From: Terrimicrobiaceae bacterium | GTDB lineage: Bacteria; Verrucomicrobiota; Verrucomicrobiia; Chthoniobacterales; Terrimicrobiaceae | Length of the DNA: 64,000 nt | Assembly (NCBI GenBank): GCA_044342325.1 | Contig: JBIIPZ010000001.1 | Location: forward strand, 79,564 to 143,563 | Reading direction: 5' to 3' | Shown: piece after piece, positions 6,359-35,800 of the stretch | Layout of the letters: every line of letters begins with the position of its first letter | Numbering within the stretch: the first letter of the stretch is position 1 | Translations under genes and position numbers: made by a program | The notes under the pieces: generated by a model | Told to the model about the DNA's origin: nothing | The model's input: only the letters and a program-made list of their open reading frames with translations | Databases searched by the model: none

Positions 6359-7327
6359 ATGCGTATTCTTTCCGGCATCCAACCTTCGGGAACCCTTCAC
6401 CTGGGAAATTACTTCGGCATGATGAAGCCCGCGATCGAACTTCAGGAGCAGGGTGAGGCCTACTATTTCATAGCGGATTTTCACGCCCTTACGAGTGTGC
6501 ACGACGCCGCCGCGCTACGGGCCAATGTGCGGGAGTTGGCGGTGGACTTTCTCGCCTGCGGGCTCGATCCGGCGCGGGCTGTTTTCTTTCGTCAATCGGA
6601 TGTGCCCGCCGTCACCGAGTTGTCATGGATTCTCAGCACCGTGACTCCCATGGGGCTGTTGGAGCGGTGTCACTCGTTCAAGGACAAGACTGCAAGGGGT
6701 CTGGCAGCATCGCATGGCTTGTTTGCTTATCCGGTGCTGATGGCGGCCGATATTTTGATTTGTGACAGCGATCTTGTGCCAGTCGGTCGGGATCAGAAAC
6801 AGCATCTTGAGGTGACTCGCGACATTGCGGTGAAGATGAACGAAACTTTCGGGGAGATTTTTAAACTCCCGCTGCCGAGTATTCGGGATGAGACGGCTGT
6901 CGTGCCCGGACTGGACGGGGCGAAGATGAGCAAAAGCTACAACAACACCATTGAGATTTTTGCTCCTGAGGCTGCGCTGCGGAAAAAGATCATGGGCATC
7001 AAAACCGATTGCACGCCTGTCGAGTCGCCCAAGCCTGTCGAGGGTTCGGTGATTCTGGATCTCTACAAGCTCGTCGCGTCGCCGGGAGATTTTCAGTCCA
7101 TGCTTGCTGCGTTCCACAACGGTGGCACGGGCTACGGGGATTTGAAGAAGCAGCTCTTCGCTGGAATCTGGGAATACTTCGCGCCTTTCCGTGTGCGCCG
7201 TGAGGAGATTCTCGCCGATGCCGGTCTGGTTGACCGAGTCCTCGCGAACGGTGCTGCAAAGGCCCGTGAGGTGTCGGATCGCGTTATGAAGCGTGTGCGG
7301 GCAGCGGTGGGGATTGGGGAGTGCTGA
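6359..7327 (+). CDS. trpS: Tryptophan--tRNA ligase
   Basis: MRILSGIQPSG.LHLGNY, YPVLMAADIL, VPVG.DQ.QH, KMSKS. Confidence 0.97.
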   Translation: MRILSGIQPSGTLHLGNYFGMMKPAIELQEQGEAYYFIADFHALTSVHDAAALRANVRELAVDFLACGLDPARAVFFRQSDVPAVTELSWILSTVTPMGLLERCHSFKDKTARGLAASHGLFAYPVLMAADILICDSDLVPVGRDQKQHLEVTRDIAVKMNETFGEIFKLPLPSIRDETAVVPGLDGAKMSKSYNNTIEIFAPEAALRKKIMGIKTDCTPVESPKPVEGSVILDLYKLVASPGDFQSMLAAFHNGGTGYGDLKKQLFAGIWEYFAPFRVRREEILADAGLVDRVLANGAAKAREVSDRVMKRVRAAVGIGEC

Positions 7328-7366
7328 GGGGGAAGGGCGGTGGCGGAAAGTGGTCTGTGGCTTTTG

Positions 7367-7474
7367 GTGAATTGAAAATGGGCCATGCCGGAGGAGGGCC
7401 CTCCCATGGGCACGAGGCGCGCTGCCGCGCGGATTTTTTTGTGGGAGGGTCAGCGTCTCGCCTGACCCAAATTT
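7367..7474. repeat. REP/REPIN-like composite repeat, copy 3
   Basis: Complete unit: gggcc..ggccctcccat hairpin, cgcgctgccgcgcg spacer, gtgggagggtcag..ctgaccc hairpin. Confidence 0.9.
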
Positions 7475-7577
7475 GAATACGGTGGGCGGTTTTTAGAGAC
7501 GGAATGGAGGCGTGCAAGGAATGGTGAGGGCAGTGCTAGGCAAAAGGGGGGGGCTGGTTTGTGTTTCGGCGCGTTTT

Positions 7578-7633
7578 GTGAATGGAAAATGGGCCATGCC
7601 GGAGGAGGGCCCTCCCATGCGCACGAGGCGCGC
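7578..7633. repeat. REP-like repeat, copy 4 (partial)
   Basis: gtgaatggaaaatgggccatgccggaggagggccctcccatgcgcacgaggcgcgc. Confidence 0.88.
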
Positions 7634-7640
7634 GAGCAGC

Positions 7641-7676
7641 AAAAAGCGGATGCCTCCTTTGGGTGGCATCCGCTTT
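7641..7676. terminator. Probable bidirectional intrinsic terminator between trpS and greA
   Basis: aaaaagcggatgcc-tcctttgggt-ggcatccgcttt. Confidence 0.85.
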
Positions 7677-7693
7677 GTGAGTTGTGACCGGTT

Positions 7694-9580
7694 TTAGTTG
7701 GAGGTGGCCATTCCGGCGGGGATGGCGTGGACTTTTGAGCGCAGGAGTTCGAGATCGGTGAAGGTTTTGATCGACTCGATGGTCACCTTGCGAGTGCCGT
7801 TTTCGGCGGGCAGTTCCAAGGTGGTGCCTGCGGCTGCGCCGAGGAGGGCTTGGCCGACGCCGGCTTTGTAGGAGACGATGCCGAGGTCGGGTGCGCTATC
7901 CCACGCTCCGAGGATACTGAATGTTTCCTTGGAGCCGTCTTCATTTTTGACGGCGACGACGGTTCCGATGGAAACCGTGGCTGTTGACGGAGTCTCGAAG
8001 TTTGTTCCGCGGGCGATAACCAAGTCGTGTTCCATCTCGGCGCGGCGGCGTTGGAGGACGCGCTGGTGCTCCTTGGCGGCCTTGAATCCCGCGTTTTCGC
8101 GCAGATCGCCTTGTTCCTTTGCGATGTTGATGTCGCGGAGGTTTTGCGGGATTTCTTTGGTGATGAGGTTGTCGAGTTCGGCTTTGCGTTTTTCGAGGCT
8201 GGCCCAGGACACGATGAGGTTATCGGCTTTCTCTTCATCTTGATGTGCGCCGGTGATCATGCTCTGGGTATCCGGGTAGAGCTTGACGATGCGGGCCATG
8301 AGCGAGCGCTTGGAGAGGTCTTCAATCGCCGGAGTGAGCAGGAGTTTCCGCATGGAGTCGCGAACGACATCGCGGCTGGCTCCGATGAGAAGGTCGCCGA
8401 TGAGGTCTCCGTCGTCGATGAGGAGGTCCTTGAGTCGCGAGGTGCGTTTTTCAGCGAGCAGATCTGCCTCGAGTGCGCTGAAAACGGCCGCGAGTAGCTC
8501 TGCGTTGAAGAGGGCTGGGAAGCGTTTGTCGCGCTCTTTGCAGAGCCAGATGAGCATCTCGGAGGAAATCGAGCGCTCACTGATCCATTTCTCGACGGTG
8601 GCTTGGAACTGCTCCTTGCGTTTGTGTTTTTCAAACAGGCGGCAGATGTCTGAAATCAAGCGGGCGCCAGCGGTGGGGAGGAGGGCGATTGCTTTGTCGC
8701 CCCAGACTTCGCCATATGCGGGTTCGAGGGCTTCGAGCACGCGCTTTTCCTTCGAACCTGGGATGGACTCCAGAATTTGACCGAGTTTTCCAGGTTCGGA
8801 GGCGATGATATTGGCGATGGTGGGAGATTCGGCTCCGGCTTGGAGATTGGGGAATTTCTCAAGCAGGTCATCGCGGGCGATGAGAATCTCAATGGCTGAG
8901 GCTGGATTCAGACGGCGGGCGCGCAGGGCGGCTTCTTCGATGAGTGTGACGATGGCTGGGAGTTCATCTTGGCTGCCTGCGAGGTCGTCGAGGGATTTCG
9001 AAATCTCTTCAAGAGCGAGAACTTGATCGCGCGTATGGCGTGCGGAGCGGAATCCATCGAGGAGACGCGATCCCGAATTCACCGGGGTGTCCAGCAGCAC
9101 ATAGGGGTCGGTTTTTTTCGCTGGCATGCCAAATTGTCCGTCGGACTTCATTTTCTTCCGGGCGGCATCCCACCAGCGTTTCAAGGCGGCGGCGTCGAAA
9201 ACGCCTGGGCTGAGCGCAGACGCGATCTGGTCGCTTGTGGCTTTGCCACCGAAGTCTGTGAGGATTTTTTTGATCAGCGCGGAGGAGTCGGATTTTGCGA
9301 GTTCGCGAATGCTGTCCGGATTGGTCTCACGCTGGGCGAGGATGTGGTCCTCGGCGATAGGTGTGAGGGTCTCAGCCGCATAGACGGCCTGCATGGGGTG
9401 GTTTTTCTTGGTCTTGAAATCAATCAGGACCTGGCCGGCGAGAAGGTTCCATTCCGCGACACGTCCGAAGCCCCAGCTCTTGTGGGTGCAGTAGGATCCG
9501 GGCGTGAGGCGGGCGAGCCTGTCGGCAGTTTTTTTATCGAGGGCGCCGCTCTCAACGGCTTGGGCGAGTTCATCTGTCAT
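7694..9580 (-). CDS. greA: Long-form GreA/GreB transcription elongation factor with a large N-terminal extension
   Basis: C-terminal GDLRENA, VSIGTVV, ILGAWD, ISY-like SYKAGVGQALLG; GAGGGG ribosome-binding site before ATG 9580. Confidence 0.88.
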   Translation of the reverse strand: MTDELAQAVESGALDKKTADRLARLTPGSYCTHKSWGFGRVAEWNLLAGQVLIDFKTKKNHPMQAVYAAETLTPIAEDHILAQRETNPDSIRELAKSDSSALIKKILTDFGGKATSDQIASALSPGVFDAAALKRWWDAARKKMKSDGQFGMPAKKTDPYVLLDTPVNSGSRLLDGFRSARHTRDQVLALEEISKSLDDLAGSQDELPAIVTLIEEAALRARRLNPASAIEILIARDDLLEKFPNLQAGAESPTIANIIASEPGKLGQILESIPGSKEKRVLEALEPAYGEVWGDKAIALLPTAGARLISDICRLFEKHKRKEQFQATVEKWISERSISSEMLIWLCKERDKRFPALFNAELLAAVFSALEADLLAEKRTSRLKDLLIDDGDLIGDLLIGASRDVVRDSMRKLLLTPAIEDLSKRSLMARIVKLYPDTQSMITGAHQDEEKADNLIVSWASLEKRKAELDNLITKEIPQNLRDINIAKEQGDLRENAGFKAAKEHQRVLQRRRAEMEHDLVIARGTNFETPSTATVSIGTVVAVKNEDGSKETFSILGAWDSAPDLGIVSYKAGVGQALLGAAAGTTLELPAENGTRKVTIESIKTFTDLELLRSKVHAIPAGMATSN

Positions 9581-25193: not shown

Positions 25194-26549
25194 TTACTCG
25201 GAAGCGGGCGGTGTATCCTGGGGCAGCGTAGTGCTGGTTGGATCTACAGACGGGGAGGGATTCGGCGTCGGGCTAGGACTTGGAGTCGGCGAAGGTGTTG
25301 GCGTCGGCCACGGGGGCACAAGATTTGGCCATTCGTGCAATGGCACGGTGAGGCCGCCGAGTTCCTCAGCGAGTTGAGTGCATTTTTCCCGCCACTTCGC
25401 GAGATCAGGCGGGCCGGGGGATTCATCGGCCGAACCAGGGAAGACGAGGTAGGTCACATTGAGGTCGCTGGCGGCGCGGATGATATTCGACGAGCGCTGG
25501 CTGAGTTCGCGGCAGAGCAGGAGTGAGGCCTCGCCGACTTTGTGGGAGGGGCCGGAATCGCCTAGGATGGCGGGATAGGCCCGGCCCTCGTGGATTACGA
25601 TGGCGTAGTCCCCGATTTTCGGCACGAAGGGGCCGGTGTGGTCCCTCATGATGAATCCCGGTAGGACGATGAAGGGGTCCACCGAGGAGACCAGAAAGCT
25701 CCATTTCTTCAGGTCGTGGATGCGGCGGGTGGCGAGGTCGATGCCTTCGTTGATCTGGGTCACGCGTGCTGGCTTAAGTTCAGGCTTGAGTTTTTCGGCT
25801 TTGAAATCGGCGAGTCGCTTTTCCTCGATTGCCAGCATGAGATTCGCCCGCTCGGTCTGTTTCGGCCAGCGATAGCTCGTCTGGGGAAGAAAGAAAATGG
25901 ATGACGAATCGACTTGGACATTGCGGTCGCCATCCGAGCCGTCCGTGTTCACATCCATGTCAGCTATGACGAGCAGCGCGCGGCGCGATGTGGCGGTGTT
26001 CTCGAGCTCAAGCATCGTCTCGCAGTCGTAAAAATTATGCCGAGTGAGCACGGCGTCGAGGTTGGCTAGCTTGCGGTTTAGGTCGTTTGTTTTGAGTTCG
26101 TAGATTTTTTCAAAAAACGGAGACACCGAAGCGCTGGTAAGCAGGACGGGAAGGTCCTTGAAAACGCTGGGCAGCGAGGGGTCGCTTGCCGCGATGTCTT
26201 CGAGCGCGAGGGCCGGGCGTGGCAGGCGGGCGCGCAAGGTCAGCTCGACTTTATAGGCATCCGGGTCACGGCGGTCCTGCGATGCCAGTTCGTTCGATGC
26301 ATTCGCAACAGCGGCGGATTCCAGCGAGATGCCGCTGAAGAGCGTGGCCGTGGGAAGCGGCTTGCGAACCAGAGCGGGTATCGGCTTGGGCGTCGGGACC
26401 GGTGTCGGCGTGGGGGAGGGCATTGGCGTTGGGGGAGGAGGGGGTGGCGGCGGAGCTTTCGGGCAGGCGGTGAGGCTGAACGCGGCGAAGCACACTCCGA
26501 GAGCTGCAAATCCCCTGCGCCACCTGCCTGCCGTCGCGCCCGTTTTCAT
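25194..26549 (-). CDS. GH75 (chitosanase-like) lipoprotein with Pro/Thr-rich linkers
   Basis: Lipobox FSLTAC; DMDVNTDG, FIVLP, ILGDSGP...GEAS. Confidence 0.75.
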   Translation of the reverse strand: MKTGATAGRWRRGFAALGVCFAAFSLTACPKAPPPPPPPPTPMPSPTPTPVPTPKPIPALVRKPLPTATLFSGISLESAAVANASNELASQDRRDPDAYKVELTLRARLPRPALALEDIAASDPSLPSVFKDLPVLLTSASVSPFFEKIYELKTNDLNRKLANLDAVLTRHNFYDCETMLELENTATSRRALLVIADMDVNTDGSDGDRNVQVDSSSIFFLPQTSYRWPKQTERANLMLAIEEKRLADFKAEKLKPELKPARVTQINEGIDLATRRIHDLKKWSFLVSSVDPFIVLPGFIMRDHTGPFVPKIGDYAIVIHEGRAYPAILGDSGPSHKVGEASLLLCRELSQRSSNIIRAASDLNVTYLVFPGSADESPGPPDLAKWREKCTQLAEELGGLTVPLHEWPNLVPPWPTPTPSPTPSPSPTPNPSPSVDPTSTTLPQDTPPASE

Positions 26550-26552
26550 TCC

Positions 26553-28406
26553 TCAGGTATGGGCGATGAAGGCCGAGTAAACATCCGGTGGGATGTCGAG
26601 CATCTTGTAGTCGCTGGATGAAACGAAGAGCAGGGTTTGCTTGCCCTTGCCGAGAAGTTGTCCGAGCGAGTCATAGATTTCATGTTCCAGTGTAGCGAAC
26701 TTGCGGTTGTAGCTGGCAACGCGGATTTTCACCTGCACGGTTTCAAACTCCCGGGTTTCGCGGACAAACTTGTGCTCGAACGAGCGGGTCAGGATGTAGA
26801 ACGGTGTGTTCTTGAGATTGAACTTCGGCATGACGCGGTTGAAAAATAGCTCGCGCGCCTTACCGACCCACATGGCATACATGCCGAAATAGACATTACC
26901 GACCGAGTTGGTGTCCGCATAGGTCGCGACGAGGGTGTAAACAAACCACTTGTCTTCAAAATGCCCTGCCAAGCTGTGCTGGGAGGCTCCCGGGTCGAGA
27001 ACAGTGATCGGGCTCGCCACGCTCACAGCGCTCTCTGGGCGTGACGCAAAGGCTGAGGGGGCGGTGGTGTCTAATTCCGCTGTATCGCTCACGAATTCAT
27101 CCGAGGAAGTGGGCTTCAGCAGCAGCCAGATCACATAGCCGAGCGGCAGGAGCGAGCCGACGATTTGCAGGCTCGGAGAACGCAGGAAGTAGCCAAAGGA
27201 AAAAATGACCACTGCAATGCTGCCGATGCAGAACATTTTCACCTGCGGAATCGCATTCGCCGGGCTGACAATGTAGCAGCGGGCGATCGCCAGGATCGAG
27301 TAGCCAACGAAGAATGTGGCGTAAAAGATCATGAAAAATTCCAGCTCAAACTTGAGCATGACTCCCGCCACGGCGACGATGCCTGCAAGCAGGTAGGCTG
27401 GGATCGGAGATGTGAGGAGCTTGGGCGGAACGAGTGAGAAGATCGGATGGTTGCTCGTGCTGGCGTTGGATTGCAAAAACCACTTCAAAGCGATGTAGCC
27501 GCTGTCGAGCGTGGTCAGCACACACACGCAGATGAACACAGCATAGGCGGCGAATGTCCAAGATGACGCATTGGAGAAGACCATGGTCAGCACTTCCTGG
27601 CCATAGTTGTGCCCGGTGATTCCCACGCGAATGAACTCTCCCGCGCCCCAGTTGAGCGCCCAGAGTGCTGTGATGCCGTGCCAGAGGATGAGGCCGAAAA
27701 AGAGGAGCGAGCCGATGATATATCCGGCAGCGATGGAGACGCGCTCGCGGTGCATTTGAATCGCCCGCTGCCATTGCTGGAGGTCAAGCCACGGGCCGAC
27801 GAGGAAACCGATGATGATCGGCACGGCGTAGCCCCAGTAGTTCCAGTCGTTCGTAGGCAGCTTGGGAATCGTTAGTGGGCCGGTTCCCTTTCCGAGTGTG
27901 TGCACAGTAAGAATCACCAACGCCGGAGCAAGCAGCAGGAAAAGCGCTCCATGGCTGAATTTGATGCGTTTGATGTCAAATTCCTCGCCAAACAAAATCG
28001 CCGCCGCCAGCACCACAAGCATTGTGAGTGGTAAGTAGAGGAGTTCCGGACGGAAGCCCAAAGGCGCCCAAGCGTAGCGGATGAATGCAAAGATCGTCAG
28101 TGTGATGGCGAGCAGTTGATAGAGGAAAAAAACCAGCCGGAACGGCCTCGACCAAGAGGCAAAAAATTTCGCCAGCGACTCGGATCCCGACTCCCTCCGC
28201 GCCAAGTGGTGCGTGACCAAGCCGAAGATCAGAAGCCCCAGAAAATTCGGAATCGCAAAGGTCAGCAATCCGAAGAGTCCGAATTGCGTGGTGAATTGAA
28301 CAGAGAAGAACAGGCCGAGCCCCCACATCCAGGAAAGCGCAATAGAGATTCCCCACAGCACAGCGCCGAGAGAGCGTGGGATTGGAAGAGCCGAAGATTT
28401 AGCCAT
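26553..28406 (-). CDS. Multi-pass membrane protein fused to a C-terminal hot-dog thioesterase
   Basis: About a dozen hydrophobic segments, a Ser/Pro linker, then YADTNSVGNVYFGMYAMWVGKARELFF. Confidence 0.8.
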   Translation of the reverse strand: MAKSSALPIPRSLGAVLWGISIALSWMWGLGLFFSVQFTTQFGLFGLLTFAIPNFLGLLIFGLVTHHLARRESGSESLAKFFASWSRPFRLVFFLYQLLAITLTIFAFIRYAWAPLGFRPELLYLPLTMLVVLAAAILFGEEFDIKRIKFSHGALFLLLAPALVILTVHTLGKGTGPLTIPKLPTNDWNYWGYAVPIIIGFLVGPWLDLQQWQRAIQMHRERVSIAAGYIIGSLLFFGLILWHGITALWALNWGAGEFIRVGITGHNYGQEVLTMVFSNASSWTFAAYAVFICVCVLTTLDSGYIALKWFLQSNASTSNHPIFSLVPPKLLTSPIPAYLLAGIVAVAGVMLKFELEFFMIFYATFFVGYSILAIARCYIVSPANAIPQVKMFCIGSIAVVIFSFGYFLRSPSLQIVGSLLPLGYVIWLLLKPTSSDEFVSDTAELDTTAPSAFASRPESAVSVASPITVLDPGASQHSLAGHFEDKWFVYTLVATYADTNSVGNVYFGMYAMWVGKARELFFNRVMPKFNLKNTPFYILTRSFEHKFVRETREFETVQVKIRVASYNRKFATLEHEIYDSLGQLLGKGKQTLLFVSSSDYKMLDIPPDVYSAFIAHT

Positions 28407-28460
28407 TGATGCAAAATCCATACAACGACCGGATCGAACTCGCAACTTCTTCCAAAACTT

Positions 28461-28518
28461 CCGCGCGGCAGCGCGTAGTTCCCATGGGAGGGGCAGCGTC
28501 TCGTCTGACCCAAATTTC
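28461..28518. repeat. REP-family copy (inverted spacer plus hairpin)
   Basis: ccgcgcggcagcgcg...atgggaggggcagcgtctcgtctgacccaaattt. Confidence 0.8.
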
Positions 28519-28582
28519 CAGCAAGGACGGCGCCTCTCAACAAATTGATGTGCCTACCCTGGCACATTCAGCAGTTCAAGCG

Positions 28583-28990
28583 TTAGGCCAGTTGTTGACT
28601 CAGCGTGACCCTCCCCCGTGCGATGGCGCGGGATGCCGAAGTGATTTCAAATTCGAACTGCGCGAGTGGCCCAAGCTCTCTGACGAGCGTCACGCTGGCC
28701 TTCAAAGTCTCATTGGGCAGGGCCGCGCTCTGGATTCGCAGGGCGTCCACCGAAGCAACGAACAAAGCGGCGTCGGGTTTGGCGCTGTCTTTCATCCACA
28801 GCGCTCCAGCGGTCTGTGCGGCGAATTCCATAAGCAGCGCGGCAGGCACGATGGGGTTTCCTGGGAAGTGGTCTTTAAAAAACCACAACTCCGGATTCAG
28901 ATGCCATATCCCGATGCCGTTGCCATCAACGCATTCGAAGGTATCTAAAAAACGGAATCCCGGGCCGTGGGGAGTGAGTGGTTTGTTCAT
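28583..28990 (-). CDS. FabA/FabZ-like 3-hydroxyacyl-ACP dehydratase
   Basis: PHGPGFRFLD, FFKDHFPGNPIVP..L.E.AAQ. Confidence 0.85.
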   Translation of the reverse strand: MNKPLTPHGPGFRFLDTFECVDGNGIGIWHLNPELWFFKDHFPGNPIVPAALLMEFAAQTAGALWMKDSAKPDAALFVASVDALRIQSAALPNETLKASVTLVRELGPLAQFEFEITSASRAIARGRVTLSQQLA

Positions 28991-29958
28991 TTTTCGAGAC
29001 GGGAGTAGTGGTGCCATTGTTCGGGTGCACGGGTGAAGAGAGGCACAAGCCCCTCCTTGGCCAATCGCGTGGTGAAGTTCTCCAGAGTGGCTTCGCGCCC
29101 CTCGGGCAACCATACCGGGCGCAATGGCGGCGCGGCTTCGATGGCAAATTGGCCATTCGGTTCGCGCCAGATGCCGGCGGCGACGATCGGCGCGCCGGAG
29201 AGGAGCGAAAGCAGGACCGGAGCGGTGGAGAAGGGAATGCGGCCATGCGGTAGATCGACCTCGACGATGTTGGCGTCGAAAGGGCGGTCGCTAAGCAGGG
29301 CGATCATCGCTCCGTTTCGCAGCTTGCGCGTTATTTCCACAGCAGAGAAGGCATCGTTGCCGACCACCACCGTTTCAACCCCCCAGCGTTTGCGGAAGTC
29401 CGCCCGCCAGCGGGTCAGCTCGGTCGTAGGCTCGGGCAGCGTGAGCGTGGTCATCGGATATCCCAACTGGGACATCACAAGCCCGCCGAGTTCGAAAAAT
29501 CCAAAGTGTCCAGTCACGAAAAGGCAGCCCTTTCCGTCGCTGCGTGCGTCCTCGATATGTTCAATGCCTTGTTTTGATCCCAGCATGTCGAGCACTACGC
29601 CGGTTTTGCTGACGCCCAGTTCCGCATATTCGCGGAAGTTCAACGCCTGGTGAGTGCAGACTCGTGCCGCATTTTTCCAAGTCGCTTTGCGGGGATCGAG
29701 CAGTGCGATGTTCGCGCGGATTTCGCGAAGCACCTTGGGGTGCGCAAGCGCATAGCCGGCGCCAATGAGGCGAGCGATCCAGATGCTCAGCGCCTTTCCG
29801 ACAAGCCGCCGCGCTGAAATCGCCAATTCAAAGGCATGCGGACGGTAGAGCGCCTTGTAAAACTTCGCCTCGCGGTAATCCTTGCCACGCCTCGGGCGCA
29901 AGGCCGCAACCAAGAGCGCCAGCAGACCCGTAATGATCAAAATATGTCGGAGCCGCAT
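28987..29958 (-). CDS. LpxL-family acyltransferase
   Basis: TGHFGFFELGG (HxxxxE), LLSDRP, PEQW. Confidence 0.85.
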   Translation of the reverse strand: MRLRHILIITGLLALLVAALRPRRGKDYREAKFYKALYRPHAFELAISARRLVGKALSIWIARLIGAGYALAHPKVLREIRANIALLDPRKATWKNAARVCTHQALNFREYAELGVSKTGVVLDMLGSKQGIEHIEDARSDGKGCLFVTGHFGFFELGGLVMSQLGYPMTTLTLPEPTTELTRWRADFRKRWGVETVVVGNDAFSAVEITRKLRNGAMIALLSDRPFDANIVEVDLPHGRIPFSTAPVLLSLLSGAPIVAAGIWREPNGQFAIEAAPPLRPVWLPEGREATLENFTTRLAKEGLVPLFTRAPEQWHHYSRLEK

Positions 29959-29999
29959 AGGTGGGGTTGGCGTCTGCCGCAGTGCGAGTTTGGGTCGCT

Positions 30000-30266
30000 T
30001 TACGCGCTGGCAAGTCGCCCGTTGATCCAGTCCCGAAGCACGCCGAGGCTCTGCAGGGCATCCCTCGCCGTCGTGGCGTCGCCGATCGAGATGCCGTATT
30101 TTTTTTCTACGGCGATGATGATTTGCAAGGCGTCCAGCGAGTCGAGACCGAGGCCGTCTGCGCCAAATAACGGCGTGTGCTCGGAGATGGTGGCGACATC
30201 GATTTTAAGCATCACATTTTCAGCCAGCATGGAGCGAAGAATGTCAACGGAGGTTTCTTTGTCCAT
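30000..30266 (-). CDS. Acyl carrier protein (aryl-polyene/flexirubin type)
   Basis: PLFGADGLGLDSLDAL...EKKYG, with the phosphopantetheine Ser. Confidence 0.9.
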   Translation of the reverse strand: MDKETSVDILRSMLAENVMLKIDVATISEHTPLFGADGLGLDSLDALQIIIAVEKKYGISIGDATTARDALQSLGVLRDWINGRLASA

Positions 30267-30304
30267 GGGGTCAGGCAGCGGTGGAGTAGCAGAGCGTGTG
30301 AGTC

Positions 30305-31003
30305 TCAAGCTGACCCTGCATCCAGCCTGTCTGTGAATATATAACCATCTACTTTCAGCGTATTCAGAAGCTCGGAAAGTGTGCAAGCCCGCTCTCCCTC
30401 GCGCATGCTGCGAAGGTGGCTTTCGTGAAGCAGGATGATGCCTCCGGGCGTTGCGCTCCGGCGGATGCGCCGCACCACGCGGGCGGGGTCGTGGGCGATG
30501 CCGTCATGACCTGTGGCGGACCAGCCCATGATCTTGAGACCGCACGCCTCGGCCGCGAGATGCACAAAGGGGTTGGCCATGCCAACTGGGGCTCGAAAAT
30601 GAACAGGCATTCGACCGATTGCTTTTTCAATAGCCGCCGAGCAACGCGTGATTTCCTCCGCCGCGCGGCGAGGCCCGGCGGACCAGAAGGTCGCCGAGGG
30701 ATGTGAGTAGGTATGGTTCTGCACGGAGTGTCCTTCGTCCACCATGCGTCGACAAAGTGCCGGATGGGCCTCCGCCTTTTTCCCAATCACAAAAAATACC
30801 GCCCTCACTCGTGCTTTTGCCAAAGTATCCAAGATTTGCGGGGTCTGCTGGGGATCAGGGCCGTCATCAATCGTAAGCAGGAGTTCCCTCTCTCGGGTAG
30901 GGAAGGATTTTTCGACCGCTCCGAACCAGCCGCAGTTTCGAATCACCCCCGGTAGCACGAGCATCCAACCCGCGCAGGCTGTGAGATATCGCGACTTGTT
31001 CAT
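30305..31003 (-). CDS. Polysaccharide deacetylase (NodB/CE4)
   Basis: LTIDDGP, NHTYSH, FRAPVG, IILLHE. Confidence 0.9.
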   Translation of the reverse strand: MNKSRYLTACAGWMLVLPGVIRNCGWFGAVEKSFPTRERELLLTIDDGPDPQQTPQILDTLAKARVRAVFFVIGKKAEAHPALCRRMVDEGHSVQNHTYSHPSATFWSAGPRRAAEEITRCSAAIEKAIGRMPVHFRAPVGMANPFVHLAAEACGLKIMGWSATGHDGIAHDPARVVRRIRRSATPGGIILLHESHLRSMREGERACTLSELLNTLKVDGYIFTDRLDAGSA

Positions 31004-31806
31004 TCCACGGGATCGGAACATCGCCGGATCGCCTCTCCCTCACGGATCAGGCGTTGGCGAAAATATTCCTCCAGCGTCTGGCTGAAATCACGCGCATTGG
31101 CATGTGGGTCGGGATGAAAAACCTGGCCGGTCGAAAGGCGGAAGTGGATTGGCATTTCGAGCGGGCTTTTGAATGAGATCGCTTTCCCTAAAAAACGGCT
31201 CGTGCACTCGATAAAGATGGTTCGCACAGCGGCACCGCCTTTGATGGCGGCGAGCGCGAATCCATCGAGGAACGGCCCAATCGCACCCTCGCGTGTTCGG
31301 GTGCCTTCGGGAAAAACAATCATGTTGCCGCCTTGGGCCACAAGTCGCCGTGTCTCCTTGACCATGCGCAGCGCAGGAAGGCTGGGTATGTATGCGGCCT
31401 GCTTGGCCGGGATGGAAAAAAGAGGATGTCGCCAAGGATTTGCTCCGACCACACAAGCCGCGTGGGGAAATTTCTGGAAAAGTAGGAGCGCGTCAAAAAT
31501 CGAGGGATGGTTCGCGCAAAGAAGAGAGCCACGCCAGTTGGCGGAGTCTTCAAAGCCCACATATTCGCAGCGGGTGCAACCCATGCGCGCCAGGCGATCG
31601 AGGTATCTCGCGCAGTGGCGGCTTATGGTCTCTCTCGCCCGGAGGTGGGATGTTTCGTCATTGCCGGATGGGAATCTGAAAAGCACGGAAGCTGCTAACC
31701 AACTCGCTCCAGCTAGATAGAGAGCGTAGGCGGCGTGGAGCCGCGCAGAATCTCGCAGAGGCCTGCTCTCGAACTGAGGCGCCGGCGCAGTCGCCGAATT
31801 CTCCAT
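31000..31806 (-). CDS. Lysophospholipid acyltransferase (PlsC family)
   Basis: ANHPSIFD, VFPEGTRT. Confidence 0.88.
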   Translation of the reverse strand: MENSATAPAPQFESRPLRDSARLHAAYALYLAGASWLAASVLFRFPSGNDETSHLRARETISRHCARYLDRLARMGCTRCEYVGFEDSANWRGSLLCANHPSIFDALLLFQKFPHAACVVGANPWRHPLFSIPAKQAAYIPSLPALRMVKETRRLVAQGGNMIVFPEGTRTREGAIGPFLDGFALAAIKGGAAVRTIFIECTSRFLGKAISFKSPLEMPIHFRLSTGQVFHPDPHANARDFSQTLEEYFRQRLIREGEAIRRCSDPVE

Positions 31807-32041
31807 GGAAGCGAGCCTATTGAGTGCCATCCATCGTATGTTTGACCGAGATGCGGGTCTTTCACCAGAACAACCTCACTCCTGCTTTGGACGCTCGGCT
31901 TGTTGTGGAGGCTTGCTTTGGGACAGGCTTGGATGCTTCTTTGCTGTTTCGTCGGAGATCAAGACCAAGCCGTGCGGCGGAGTGGATTGCGTTGCCTCAG
32001 GCATGGTCGCCGAGGTATTAAATTCTGGACCAATCGAACAT

Positions 32042-32707
32042 ATGGCAGATTCCTTTTCCGCATTTCAGATAGCCCGCGCCTATGGTCGCTCCAGATGGCT
32101 TCGAGGCTATGTTGCTGGAAAAGTCGGCACGGATCCTGTTTTCAAGACGGCGTGGAAATTTATCAGTATGCGTCGCCAGCCCGTATGGGACATCGGATGT
32201 GGATTGGGTCTCCTTGGTATTTCCATGCGCGGCGCAGGTCTCACCGAGCGCTACCGGGGCTTCGACACCAGCGCCTGGAAGGTCAATCTGGGCAAGGAGG
32301 CCATGCGGCATTTTGGTTTTGAGGAAGTGGGCTTCGAAGTGCGCGACGCGCTGTCGGTGCAGATTCCCGAAGGGGCGACGGTCTGCATGTTCGATGTGCT
32401 TCATTATCTCTCGCCACCGGATCAGAAGCTCATGCTCGAGCGCTTGGCCAAAGCGGCTGAAGCAGGGTCTCTCATCCTCCTACGCACGACATTCAAAGAC
32501 GCCGGTTGGCGTTATCTGGTAACCCTTCTTGAGGAGTGGTGGACCCGCGTTAGCGGCTGGATCAGCGGGGGAGATGTCAATTTTCCTCACCGTCGGGAGT
32601 TGGTTTCCTTTTTCAAGAATCGCGGCCTCGGAATCGGCGTAACCCCGCTCTGGGGTAAGACCCCCTTCGGCGGCGAGTTGGTCGTCATCGAAAAAATCGA
32701 GGCCTGA
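32042..32707 (+). CDS. Class I SAM-dependent methyltransferase
   Basis: GK...DPVF, DIGCGLG, FDVLHYL, PLWGKTPF. Confidence 0.85.
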   Translation: MADSFSAFQIARAYGRSRWLRGYVAGKVGTDPVFKTAWKFISMRRQPVWDIGCGLGLLGISMRGAGLTERYRGFDTSAWKVNLGKEAMRHFGFEEVGFEVRDALSVQIPEGATVCMFDVLHYLSPPDQKLMLERLAKAAEAGSLILLRTTFKDAGWRYLVTLLEEWWTRVSGWISGGDVNFPHRRELVSFFKNRGLGIGVTPLWGKTPFGGELVVIEKIEA

Positions 32708-32778
32708 TACCAACGGCTACTTGCGTTTTGACTACGGTGCTGAGGCGCGGGCGTGTCGCTTTCCGACCTCCTGCGCCA

Positions 32779-32811
32779 GGAAATGGGTCATCCCAGAGAA
32801 TGACCCATTCC
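32779..32811. terminator. Stem-loop between convergent genes
   Basis: aatgggtcat-cccagaga-atgacccatt; no clear U-tract. Confidence 0.55.
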
Positions 32812-32845
32812 GGTGAAGGATTTCGATGCTGCTTGCGTTTTAGGA

Positions 32846-35800
32846 TTAGCGGGAGGCGATAACTTCTTCGCTGATGACCTTACCTGTGGCCTCGGGCTCT
32901 TTGGAGGGCTCGGGGACCGGTTTGGCGGTCGGGACATTCGGGCTGACCTTCCAGAAGAGGGGCTGGAATTTGTTCCAGGCTCCGAGGATTTCGGTGGCGC
33001 GGGGGCTGCCGGTGAGATCGTGGTGCTCTTGGATGAGGGCCTTGAGTGTCGCGATGTCAGAGTCGGCAGCCAGACGCGAGATCGAGATGAGCTGGTTGTT
33101 GTAGAGGCGCTCGAAGCGGTTCTCGAGGTCTAGGATGTAGGCCGCGCCGCCGGTCATGCCGGCGCCGAAGTTTTTGCCAGTGCGGCCGAGGACCACGACG
33201 GTTCCATTGGTCATGTATTCACAACCGTGGTCACCGATGCCTTCAACGACGGCAGTGCCGCCGGAATTGCGGACGCAGAAGCGCTCGCCGGCGCGGCCGT
33301 TTGCGAAGAGGCGTCCACCGCTCGCGCCATACATCACGGTGTTGCCGATGATCATGGCCTCGTGCGGGATGAAGAGCGAGCCGGGCTCGGGTTTGATGAC
33401 GATTTCGCCACCGCTCATGGTTTTGCCGACATAGTCGTTGGCTTCGCCGGTGAGGAGGAGTCGCACGCCGGGCGAGAGGAACGCGCCGAAGCTTTGTCCC
33501 GCGCTGCCCTTGAGCTTGAGTTCGACGGTGCCATTGGCAATGCCTTCCTCGCCCCACTGGTAGCCGATCTCGCCGGAGACCTGGGTTCCCACCGAGCGGC
33601 TGGTGTTTTCGACCTCGTAAGAGAGGGAAATGGGACGGCCATCGGTGATGGCATCCTTCGCGTCTTGGAGAACGGTCTCGTCGAGCGTCGAGTCCTCGGG
33701 TCCATCGTTGCGCGAGCGGGTGGCGTGGCGCACGGCGGAAGGATCATCGGCGGCGACATTCACGAGCAGGCGTGAGAGGTCGAGGGTGTTGGCTTTCGGG
33801 TGGTTTGGGATTTCCTTTTGGCGCAGGCATTCCACGCGGCCGACCATTTCATCAATGGTGCGGAAGCCTAGACGGGCCATCATTTCGCGGACCTCGGTGG
33901 CGACGCCGTTGAAGAAGGCGACGACATTTTCCGGGCGGCCTTTGAATTTCGCGCGGAGTCGGTCGTCGATCGTGGCGACGCCGACGGGGCAGGTGTTGAG
34001 ATGGCACTGGCGGACATACACGCAGCCCATCGCGATGAGGGCGGCGGTGCCGAAGTTGAACTCCTCGGCTCCAAGCAGGGCGGCGTAAACAATGTCCTCG
34101 CCGCTGCGCATGCCGCCGTCGGTGCGGAGGGTGACGCGGTTGCGGAGCCCATTGAGCATGAGAACCTGATGGGCTTCGGCGACGCCGAGTTCCCAAGGTC
34201 CACCGGCATGCTTGATCGAGCTCAGCGGGGAGGCCCCTGTGCCGCCTTCATGTCCGCTGACGAGAATGATGTCCGCATGAGCCTTTGCCACGCCTGCGGC
34301 GATGGTGCCGACGCCTGCGGTGGAGACGAGCTTCACGCAAATACGGGCGCGGGGGTTCACCTGTTTCAAATCGTAGATGAGCTGGGCCAGATCTTCGATC
34401 GAGTAGATATCATGGTGTGGAGGTGGGGAAATAAGGGTCACTCCTTCCACCGAGTGGCGCAGCTTGGCGATGTAGGCGCTGACCTTGTGGCCGGGCAGTT
34501 GGCCGCCTTCGCCTGGCTTGGCGCCTTGGGCCATCTTGATTTCGATTTCTTTGGCGCTGGCGAGATAGGCTGCCGACACGCCGAAACGGCCGGATGCGAT
34601 CTGCTTGATGGCGCTGTTCGCCCAGTCGCCATTGTCGCGGCGTTTGAAGCGGGCGGGGTCTTCGCCACCTTCGCCGCTGTTCGACTTGCCGCCGATGCGG
34701 TTCATGGCGATGGCCAGGCACTCGTGGGCTTCGGGGCTCAGGGCTCCGAGCGACATACCAGCTGTGGTAAAGCGTTTGCGGATGTCTTCAATCGGCTCCA
34801 CCTCATCTATAGAGATCGGGCCTTCGGTCGTGGGCAGGATTTCGAGAAGATTGCGGAGTGCGACCGGCGTGTTTGCCAGCACCGAGTCGACATATTTTTT
34901 ATAATCCTCCGCCTTGCCGGCTTTGTCGGCACCCTTGATGCCCACATAGGCGTGGAAGCTTTGGAGGACAGGTGGAGTCACGGCATGCATCTCGCCGCCG
35001 CGACGGAAGCGGTAGTAACCGGGGTCGCTGAGTTTGCCGGCTTCGATCGGCACGGCTTCCGAATAGGCCATGGCGTGGCGGGTCAGGGACTCGATGGCGA
35101 TTTCCTTGAAGCCGATGCCTTCAATCTGGGAGGCCGTGCCCTTGAAGCATTCCTCGATGAGTTTGGAGGAAATGCCGATGGCTTCGAAGATTTGCGCGCC
35201 ACGGTAGCTGTTGACCACCGAAATGCCCATTTTAGACATGATCTTGAGGATGCCAGCTTCGATGGCTTTGCGGTAGTTGATGGCCGACTTGGCGAAATCG
35301 CCGTTCGCACCGTCGCGCTCGAGAAGTTCACGAATGGTCTCGAAGGCGAGGTAGGGATTCACTGCCGCAGCGCCGAAGCCGATGAGGCAGGCGATCTGGT
35401 GCACATCGCGGGCTTCGCCCGTTTGGCAAACCAAGCTGGCGCGCATGCGTTTTCCAACGCGAATCAGGTGGTGGTGCACCGCTCCCACGGCGAGGAGCAT
35501 CGGAACGGGGACTTTCCCGTGGTCGACTCCGTAGTCCGAGAGAATGAGAATGCGTGTGTCGGCATCGATCGCCGCCTCGGCATCGGCGCAAATGCGCTTG
35601 ATGGCAGGCTCGAGGCCGTCTTCGCCCTCGGAGGCGTTCCAGAGTGTCGAAACTGTGGTGGACTTGTGTTCATTGCCTACAGCTTGAATCGCGGCCAGTT
35701 CCTCGTTGAGAAGCGCAGGCGACTCCAGACTCACCAGGCGGGCATGCTCGGGCGTTTCGGCGAGCATGTTTTTGCGCCAGCCGAGCACGGTATTCAGGCT

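Follow-up and report, generated by a model that had tools for sequence, protein, structure and literature searches.

What can a protein do that carries a transporter-like membrane domain and a thioesterase (TE) on one polypeptide? The question is raised by a gene in a 64,000-nucleotide (nt) stretch of DNA from a Terrimicrobiaceae bacterium, called the window in the following. Residue numbers are those of the window protein counted from the ATG start given in the table; other in-frame starts of the same open reading frame (ORF) lie at 28421 (ATG) and 28445 (TTG, giving 630 amino acids, aa). Both halves of the protein come from well-studied superfamilies, and a full-text literature search found no paper on a thioesterase-symporter fusion and thus no studied example of their permanent joining. 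A previous sequence-only reading knew of no described protein with this architecture; this stands for the literature, whereas the sequence databases do hold the family under a generic name. As a tentative answer, one that we consider possible and prefer to those discussed at the end, we propose an autonomous module that would hydrolyze long-chain acyl thioesters at the membrane and hand the acid to its own carrier for export.

Fold and family of the two halves

The ORF runs without interruption through a membrane domain, a linker and a hot-dog TE domain, and all motifs quoted in the sequence-only reading are located at the places given there. Hydropathy analysis places 12 membrane segments inside residues 15–433. 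Basic residues are concentrated in the N-terminus and in the even-numbered loops of the membrane domain, and this positive-inside pattern therefore predicts that both ends of the protein, the TE included, are cytoplasmic. An AlphaFold2 (AF2) model computed from a 38-sequence alignment reached a mean per-residue confidence (pLDDT) of 86.6 and a predicted template modeling score (pTM) of 0.70. Values below 50 are confined to the linker, where they cover residues 439–475, and to the first three residues, so the linker appears disordered in the model. Its sequence and length also differ between relatives of the fusion in the family alignment.

Pfam recognized nothing on the full protein outside the C-terminal hot-dog domain, and NCBIfam likewise gave no match to the membrane half. 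The Foldseek list of PDB matches was made up of TE matches, with nothing for the membrane half. We therefore relied on more distant comparisons. One relative of the family, P0261, which phmmer matched to the query at E 1.6e-9, belongs to PF00474 (E 2e-28) and is the only one of the 38 aligned members with a match to this SSF profile. The 120 homologues listed for P0261 all have PF00474 too, and the named ones are urea-proton or Na+/proline symporters. A membrane profile of 36 sequences, from which P0261 had been removed, was aligned by hhalign with P0261 and 30 of its PF00474 homologues, giving a probability of 99.6%, an E-value of 1.2e-24 and 387 aligned columns. The motifs SIAxSWxW, PN, YQ, DxQxWQRA and STLDSG are common to the fusion family and this PF00474 sister family. 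A search of PDB sequences with the family profile gave weak matches to DUR3 urea symporters (E 0.023–0.029). A further hhalign comparison of the family alignment with the single E. coli PutP sequence gave a probability of 0.2 and was set aside, a single-sequence template being too weak.

Structural comparison of the AF2 model with representative structures (VIA-align) pointed to the same group. CHT1 scored Z 26.9 with 396 aligned residues and a root mean square deviation (rmsd) of 3.8, followed among members of the SSS family by SiaT (Z 24.8), DUR3 (Z 24.1, 420 aligned), SMCT1 (Z 23.8) and SGLT1 (Z 22.4). Four of the top five structural matches (CHT1, SiaT, DUR3 and SMCT1) are SSS members, and LeuT-fold carriers outside SSS score nearly as high (DMT1 Z 25.0, MhsT Z 22.5). 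Three lines of evidence thus agree in identifying the membrane half as a divergent carrier of the SSS/LeuT fold, and what the sequence-only reading had offered tentatively as an SSS/LeuT likeness is borne out by both the profile alignment and the match to CHT1. Like the SSS family (PF00474, TC 2.A.21; DUR3, CHT1/SLC5A7, SiaT, SMCT1, SGLT1, vSGLT), the window protein has the LeuT fold with a broken first and sixth transmembrane helix (TM1 and TM6); in the model the helices are interrupted at residues 26–28 and 208. It differs in two respects. SSS proteins have an extra N-terminal helix and an N-out topology, while the hhalign alignment begins at template residue 53 and the first hydrophobic segment of the window protein corresponds to core TM1; the protein lacks the extra helix and is therefore predicted to be N-in with 12 TM helices. 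Unlike the SSS family it also bears an enzyme domain at its C-terminus.

Conservation within the membrane half is concentrated on a few residues. Q97, D208 and W212 are invariant, the latter two in 38 of 38 aligned members. W26 is found in 35 and W28 in 36 of the 38, the remainder being gaps, T299 in 35 and S302 in 37, and N54 is near-invariant. These residues map to TM1, TM3, TM6 and TM8; in the model D208 sits at the TM6 break and W26 and W28 flank the TM1 break. LeuT-fold carriers bind substrate and ions around the TM1 and TM6 breaks, and the TLDSG motif on TM8 occupies what we take to be the position of the SSS/LeuT ion site. Conserved residues thus cluster in the canonical binding-site region, which speaks for a functional carrier and against a domain that serves only as an anchor.

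The C-terminal domain belongs to the hot-dog superfamily. It matches Pfam 4HBT_2 (PF13279) at residues 497–613 with E 6.6e-11 and 43.2 bits (cutoff 25.5), spanning positions 4–122 of the 122 in the profile, and 32 of the 38 aligned family members match as well. In a single-sequence search of the PDB the best matches were 5vpj and 9ccr, both of which are EspE7 of the esperamicin pathway according to their Foldseek titles, followed by CalE7, SgcE10 and DynE7 (E 1.7e-10 to 2e-5), with YbgC-type chains at E 0.03–0.07. When the family profile was used, six enediyne TEs scored 2.8e-16 to 9e-14 and the best YbgC type 1.8e-5, so that the PDB profile E-values of YbgC/FadM proteins are 11 orders of magnitude weaker than those of the enediyne TEs. 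Enediyne TEs fill the top five single-sequence and the top six profile places among solved chains, and Foldseek aligned the domain to 5vpj with E 4.5e-7, a TM-score of 0.82 and 29% identity. By sequence the TE is thus closer to the enediyne-type TEs than to YbgC/FadM, as the sequence-only reading had proposed.

The active-site residues are consistent with this placement. N500, Y510 and R518 align with N19, Y29 and R37 of CalE7, and among TE-bearing members with a residue in the respective column the Asn is kept in 32 of 34, the Tyr in 32 of 33 and the Arg in 32 of 32; the catalytic residues of the predicted cytoplasmic TE thus appear intact. The mechanism of CalE7 and the catalytic roles of these Asn, Tyr and Arg positions were reportedly worked out by Kotaka et al. 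in 2009. The enediyne TEs of known structure (CalE7 2w3x, DynE7 2xem/2xfl, SgcE10 4i4j, EspE7 5vpj/9ccr) have the same fold as the window TE and the common motif (D/E)TNxVGNVY...Y..W.G..RE, with 27–29% identity between EspE7 and the window TE. They are soluble, free-standing proteins of about 140–160 aa encoded beside an iterative type I enediyne polyketide synthase (PKS), whereas the window TE is fused behind a 12-TM carrier and has no such neighbor in the loci scanned: by Pfam no type I PKS domain was found among 17 window genes, 137 neighbor ORFs from 17 loci and 81 ORFs from 19 distant loci, a search of scanned loci that did not extend to the whole genome for an enediyne PKS (PKSE). YbgC/FadM proteins have the same hot-dog 4HBT fold, but Asn500 stands where YbgC has its catalytic Asp. 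Their family models stay far below cutoff on the window protein (NCBIfam TIGR00051 22.2 bits against 68.7, TIGR02799 (thio_ybgC) 17.1 against 141.35, PRK10800 16.2 against 185). Since the catalytic Asp is absent, the public 'FadM/YbgC' annotation of the family is misleading and should be treated with caution. ApeK of E. coli CFT073 has an Asp-type motif and only 20% identity to the window TE (E 0.015), so on this count the window TE is not of the ApeK type known from aryl-polyene (APE) clusters.

Table. Features of the fusion gene and its flanks in the window
Feature	Residues	Window position	Strand	Basis
Whole fusion gene (single ORF, 617 aa + stop, ATG start)	1–617	26553..28406	minus	
Membrane domain, 12 TM, N-in/C-in, divergent SSS/LeuT-fold carrier	1–433	27108..28406	minus	hydropathy, AF2 model, VIA-align, hhalign
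SWMWG at unwound TM1 break	25–29	28320..28334	minus	alignment and model
GPWLDLQQWQR at TM6 break	204–214	27765..27797	minus	alignment and model
TLDSG on TM8	299–303	27498..27512	minus	alignment, hhalign
Ser/Pro/Ala-rich flexible linker	434–481	26964..27107	minus	composition, model disorder
Hot-dog TE domain, CalE7/DynE7/EspE7-like	482–617	26556..26963	minus	Pfam 4HBT_2, PDB matches, Foldseek
TE catalytic motif DTNSVGNVYFGMYAMWVGKARE	498–519	26850..26915	minus	alignment to CalE7
GH75 chitosanase-like lipoprotein (LTAC lipobox, poly-Pro spacer)		25194..26549	minus	Pfam GH75 E 1e-11
4.4-kb block upstream of fusion		28460..32846	minus, except methyltransferase (+)	Pfam/NCBIfam, comparative loci

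Distribution of the fusion

We determined how widely the two halves occur together. A word-indexed search of 5.8 billion proteins, in which 8000 candidates were scored, yielded 1113 relatives at E <= 0.001, a figure that is a lower bound. The best 120 matches were all full length, with 527–637 aa and 66–99% identity; where names were given they read 'acyl-CoA thioesterase FadM' or 'thioesterase family protein', and the named matches came from metagenome-assembled genomes of Spartobacteria, Terrimicrobiaceae or Chthoniobacterales. A relative of the fusion was encoded in 491 of 524 pattern-matched stretches, taking one genome per species. Full-length homologues, which the sequence-only reading had asked for as a check, are therefore plentiful and the fusion is not an assembly chimera.

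An exhaustive phmmer search over 1.84 billion representatives clustered at 50% identity gave 346 matches at E <= 1e-3 and 89 at E <= 1e-30. About 35 of these matches are full-length clusters with identities down to 29%, and the longest protein among the top 150 has at most 681 aa. Since so few representatives match, the fusion family is compact and specific. The clusters of ten distant relatives carried no name in the database. A few relatives of 408–497 aa lack the TE. These TE-less carriers include P0171 (408 aa; 4 members, on contigs of up to 29.9 kb), P0189, P0198 and P0201, at 28–39% identity to the window protein.

Of 401 genomes sampled evenly across the phylum, 6 carried the fusion; of 401 sampled from the order, 156 did, with a sharp division by family. 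It was present in families coded f1 (62/71), f80 (30/31), f6 (35/36), f81 (17/17), f2 (3/3), f72 (2/2), f78 (2/2) and f4 (3/5). With the same query it was detected in none of the genomes of f3 (0/71), f77 (0/71), f76 (0/43), f74 (0/8), f79 (0/6), f5 (0/3) and f73 (0/1), and in one of 30 in f75. The fusion is thus near-universal across about eight families of one verrucomicrobial order. When a metagenome scan was seeded with distant family members, a second clade appeared, with 30–38% identity to the window protein and DNA of 59–72% G+C. In a protein-language-model atlas the cluster nearest to this clade is mostly Pseudomonadota, to which the second clade probably belongs. Both halves are under joint purifying selection across these distant lineages. 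The gene is near-core in several families of Verrucomicrobiota that are abundant in freshwater and soil, and it has a probable counterpart in Pseudomonadota.

Genes next to the fusion

Downstream, the sequence-only reading had taken the fusion to be the last co-oriented gene, which does not hold: 3 nt separate its stop codon from the start of a GH75-like gene, and phosphofructokinase (PFK) and a chemotaxis operon are next on the same strand. The GH75-like protein matches the viral chitosanase V-Csn (7tvm) with E 4e-8 and keeps the catalytic Asp/Glu pair, which for V-Csn is known from the titles of mutant entries in the PDB. Where the downstream sequence was long enough, this gene was the next one after the fusion in 48 of 60 loci from genomes and 33 of 38 from metagenomes. 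Of the 401 genomes sampled from the order 377 have it, among them families in which the fusion was not detected (f3 70/71, f77 68/71, f76 42/43), and it lies beside the fusion in none of 19 distant-clade loci examined. Since it occurs irrespective of the fusion, it ranks among the order's core genes and is not an obligate partner.

Upstream neighbors of the fusion vary in nearly every lineage. In the distant clade the sole recurrent neighbor is a convergent PAS-GGDEF-EAL gene (8 of 19 loci). Among the loci scanned no neighbor is common to both clades, which fits a one-protein device. A separate pair of ketosynthase (KS) and chain-length-factor (CLF) genes lies downstream of the fusion and GH75-like genes in 6–8 of 80 loci. 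A KS gene is also found divergently upstream of the fusion in four loci (L002, L003, L007 and L008). It was considered as a third link to acyl synthesis and rejected; because it is orthologous to a lone KS that lies among unrelated genes in the window's genome (contig C16), we give it little weight. LpxL-like tblastn matches of 26–30% identity in 2 of 80 metagenome loci (L117, L118) were likewise discarded, as Pfam did not confirm them at 1e-5. Upstream of the fusion, two loci contain a gene for a processive synthase of glycosyltransferase family 2 (L048:5565-7277 and L051:5495-7132), and the former also an L,D-transpeptidase (YkuD) gene at 7154-7867.

In the window, the 4.4-kb block directly upstream of the fusion contains, on the minus strand, genes for a PlsC-like acyltransferase, a NodB-like deacetylase, an acyl carrier protein (ACP, at 30000-30272), an LpxL/PatA-like acyltransferase and a FabZ/ApeI-like dehydratase; beyond these follow the divergent methyltransferase gene and, further on, gltB. 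The sequence-only reading had included the fusion in this ACP/dehydratase/acyltransferase cluster. A tblastn comparison of 80 genome loci placed the block next to the fusion in two of them (L006, L009), which makes 2 of 54 when only loci with 4.5 kb or more of upstream sequence are counted; in 31 comparable metagenome loci it was never adjacent. In locus L004, where the fusion protein is 99% identical, gltB abuts the fusion gene and the DNA corresponding to window positions 28460-32846 is missing, and in L001, L003 and L007 the upstream 8 kb are unrelated to those of the window. Membership in the cluster is thus not supported. That reading had itself named a lack of linkage to acyl-carrier genes as grounds for abandoning its proposal, and the homologues were indeed found unlinked.

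The block itself is kept in the genus, with an at least partial DNA match in 38 of 41 genomes, mostly elsewhere than at the fusion. Block and fusion are on separate contigs in G694, G698, G553, G568 and G733, about 18 kb apart in G784 and adjoining in G513. In G553 and G694 the block is part of a fuller cluster, which starts with a Na+/H+ exchanger, methyltransferase, acyltransferase with deacetylase, and ACP, and continues with LpxL-like acyltransferase, dehydratase, KS and CLF. No thioesterase of its own was found in the fuller cluster of the sister genomes. In the window's genome (G000) the exchanger is directly followed by KS and CLF on another contig (C2:175-4041), and the six-gene block was therefore excised from an aryl-polyene-like cluster and moved in front of the fusion. 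The block derives by translocation from an aryl-polyene-like type II cluster, and its adjacency to the fusion is recent and local; the apparent membership of the fusion in a biosynthetic cluster is a product of this translocation and calls for caution wherever such neighborhoods are read. As far as the gene content of the E. coli CFT073 cluster is given in Table 1 of PMC8253772, the block together with the KS and CLF genes elsewhere resembles an APE cluster in its methyltransferase, LpxL-type acyltransferase, ACP, ApeI-like dehydratase and KS+CLF. No LolA or MMPL export genes were seen.

Gene presence gives the same picture. Within the genus the block's acyltransferase occurs in 15 of 26 genomes and the fusion in 26 of 26, and the acyltransferase is missing from genomes that are 98–100% complete. 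In family f6 the counts are 5 of 36 and 35 of 36, respectively. Orthologues of the block acyltransferase with 55–61% identity occur in a genus of f77, a family without the fusion. Block and fusion do not co-occur, and the block is outside the conserved unit of the fusion.

Several further observations concern the block. Some versions of the fuller cluster add a gene for an oxidoreductase dependent on flavin adenine dinucleotide (FAD) and an FAD halogenase-like gene; in G553 these are a Trp_halogenase-like gene (6.6e-27) at L174:7867-9138 (+) and the oxidoreductase gene at L174:4672-6207 (-). Some species of the genus may accordingly make a halogenated aryl-polyene-type product. In family f80, orthologues of the LpxL-like acyltransferase (54–56% identity) lie within frames of ~1060-1100 aa, for example G409:C37:5844-6770 and G482:C5:8814-9752, in which the acyltransferase is seemingly fused to other domains. 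A dispersed repeat of ~33 nt is located just upstream of the fusion start at about 28485-28517, again in the window at about 7442-7474 and in the same genome at C60:29786-29819; longer and weaker matches of about 50–75 nt are scattered over numerous contigs of this and related genomes. The repeat adjoins the rearrangement junction. A terminator-like hairpin with a 7-bp stem and a T-rich tail lies at 28548-28567 (-), 16 nt after the dehydratase stop codon; such sites are overall not above chance, with 2 found and 1.2 expected. A promoter scan of 28200-28800 returned 0 sites. Only one freshwater metatranscriptome covered part of the stretch, a share of 0.06. Six short contigs in it match portions of the genes for the GH75-like protein, TE, ACP and deacetylase/acyltransferase; no contig spans two genes.

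Proposed function and competing explanations

Within the autonomous module proposed here, a 12-TM ion-coupled carrier of SSS/LeuT fold, whose central binding site is conserved, would hold a CalE7-type TE on a flexible tether at the cytoplasmic face of the inner membrane, where the TE would probably form a dimer, as hot-dog TEs do. It would cleave long-chain, possibly unsaturated or beta-functionalized, acyl-ACP or acyl-coenzyme A (acyl-CoA) next to the membrane, and the carrier half would pick up the freed carboxylate and export it from the cytoplasm. Because the thioester is cleaved, release would be irreversible, and product accumulating nearby could provide the gradient for efflux. The analysis above shows the fused architecture, the fold and family to which each half belongs, the conserved catalytic and binding-site residues, the predicted cytoplasmic location of the TE and the independence from neighboring genes; the class of substrate, the direction of transport and any coupling between the halves are inferences. 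The nearest solved relatives of the TE act, according to their PDB titles, on ACP-bound long polyene chains, and among the structural relatives of the carrier are SMCT1, which transports monocarboxylates, and SiaT, which transports sialic acid. In PMC3107222, CalE7 is described as gripping the acyl chain and not the ACP, so that a generic acyl donor is plausible on this account.

A stronger form of the proposal, in which TE hydrolysis is mechanically or kinetically coupled to the LeuT-fold cycle and bond cleavage, not an ion gradient alone, powers vectorial export of a long-chain or polyene acid, seems improbable to us. It would amount to reverse group translocation, and we know of no such case for any member of the APC/LeuT superfamily. 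If hydrolysis and transport were coupled, the protein would represent a new way to energize or direct a LeuT-fold carrier, and it could serve engineering as a compact part for release and export of fatty acids or polyketide acids.

Several points weigh against the export module. Pfam SSF (PF00474) does not match the window protein at E <= 0.01. At the level of the fold the TE resembles YbgC (Foldseek TM-score 0.86–0.87) as well as CalE7 (0.82–0.84), and the structural match to YbgC 1s5u is close (Z 16.6, rmsd 1.9, TM-score 0.87); the enediyne-type call is therefore one made from sequence. To our knowledge the SSS carriers characterized so far are importers. Long-chain fatty acids cross membranes without carriers. 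TE-less relatives exist, and the carrier can therefore work alone. Finally, what is said of the function of the fusion derives from its sequence and a predicted model.

We consider it rather unlikely that the transport runs inwards, with the SSS half taking up a solute, for instance a carboxylate for subsequent activation with CoA, and the TE either serving as a safety valve that prevents CoA trapping or sensing acyl-CoA in a regulatory role. The nearest relatives DUR3, CHT1, SiaT, SMCT1 and SGLT1, all importers, speak for this, as do the sister family named after urea or proline symport and the existence of TE-less forms. In one distant-clade locus a propionyl/acetyl-CoA carboxyltransferase gene lies 2.5 kb away, and in another the next gene downstream encodes a short-chain dehydrogenase/reductase (SDR) of the enoyl-ACP-reductase family (the two loci being L119 and L122), but each of these neighbors is seen in 1 of 19 loci and acyl-CoA synthetase is not a conserved neighbor in the loci scanned. 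A purely regulatory TE, moreover, would not need the strict conservation of catalytic Asn, Tyr and Arg. Still less credible, in our view, is a role as release-and-transport step of the adjacent aryl-polyene-like ACP/dehydratase/acyltransferase pathway, perhaps through facultative use in trans. Such a role would supply the thioesterase that the fuller cluster lacks with a type that acts on polyene-ACP, and acyl-synthesis genes have come to lie beside the fusion at least twice independently, once as the block (window, L006, L009 and G513) and once as the KS+CLF pair. What decides against it is the rarity of the adjacency among informative genome and metagenome loci, the placement of the block on other contigs in five genomes, the unequal presence of acyltransferase and fusion in the genus and in f6, block orthologues in a genus without the fusion, and acyl-block neighbors in 0 of 19 distant-clade loci; the low similarity of the TE to ApeK and the hairpin after the dehydratase gene, which as a class of site is not above chance, point the same way.

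A partnership with the GH75-like lipoprotein, whereby the carrier would import released glucosamine or oligomers and the TE would have a role in linked metabolism, strikes us as equally doubtful. The 3-nt spacing, the frequent downstream position in genome and metagenome loci, the retention of both catalytic acids and the occurrence of sugar transporters among SSS carriers are all as such a partnership would have them. Yet the GH75-like gene is spread through the order irrespective of the fusion, is not beside it in 12 of 60 genome loci or in any of the 19 distant-clade loci, and thioesterase activity has no chemical link to amino-sugar uptake. There is similarly little to recommend the idea that the membrane half transports nothing and serves as a mere anchor or scaffold to keep a YbgC-like housekeeping TE at the membrane near the lipid-synthesis enzymes. 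YbgC is reported to associate with the inner membrane and with phospholipid enzymes, and YbgC-type TEs are equally near at the fold level. However, 12 helices with invariant polar residues in TM3 and at the TM6 break and near-invariant ones in TM1 and TM8, all in common with true SSS carriers, would be superfluous for an anchor, and versions of the carrier without a TE persist.

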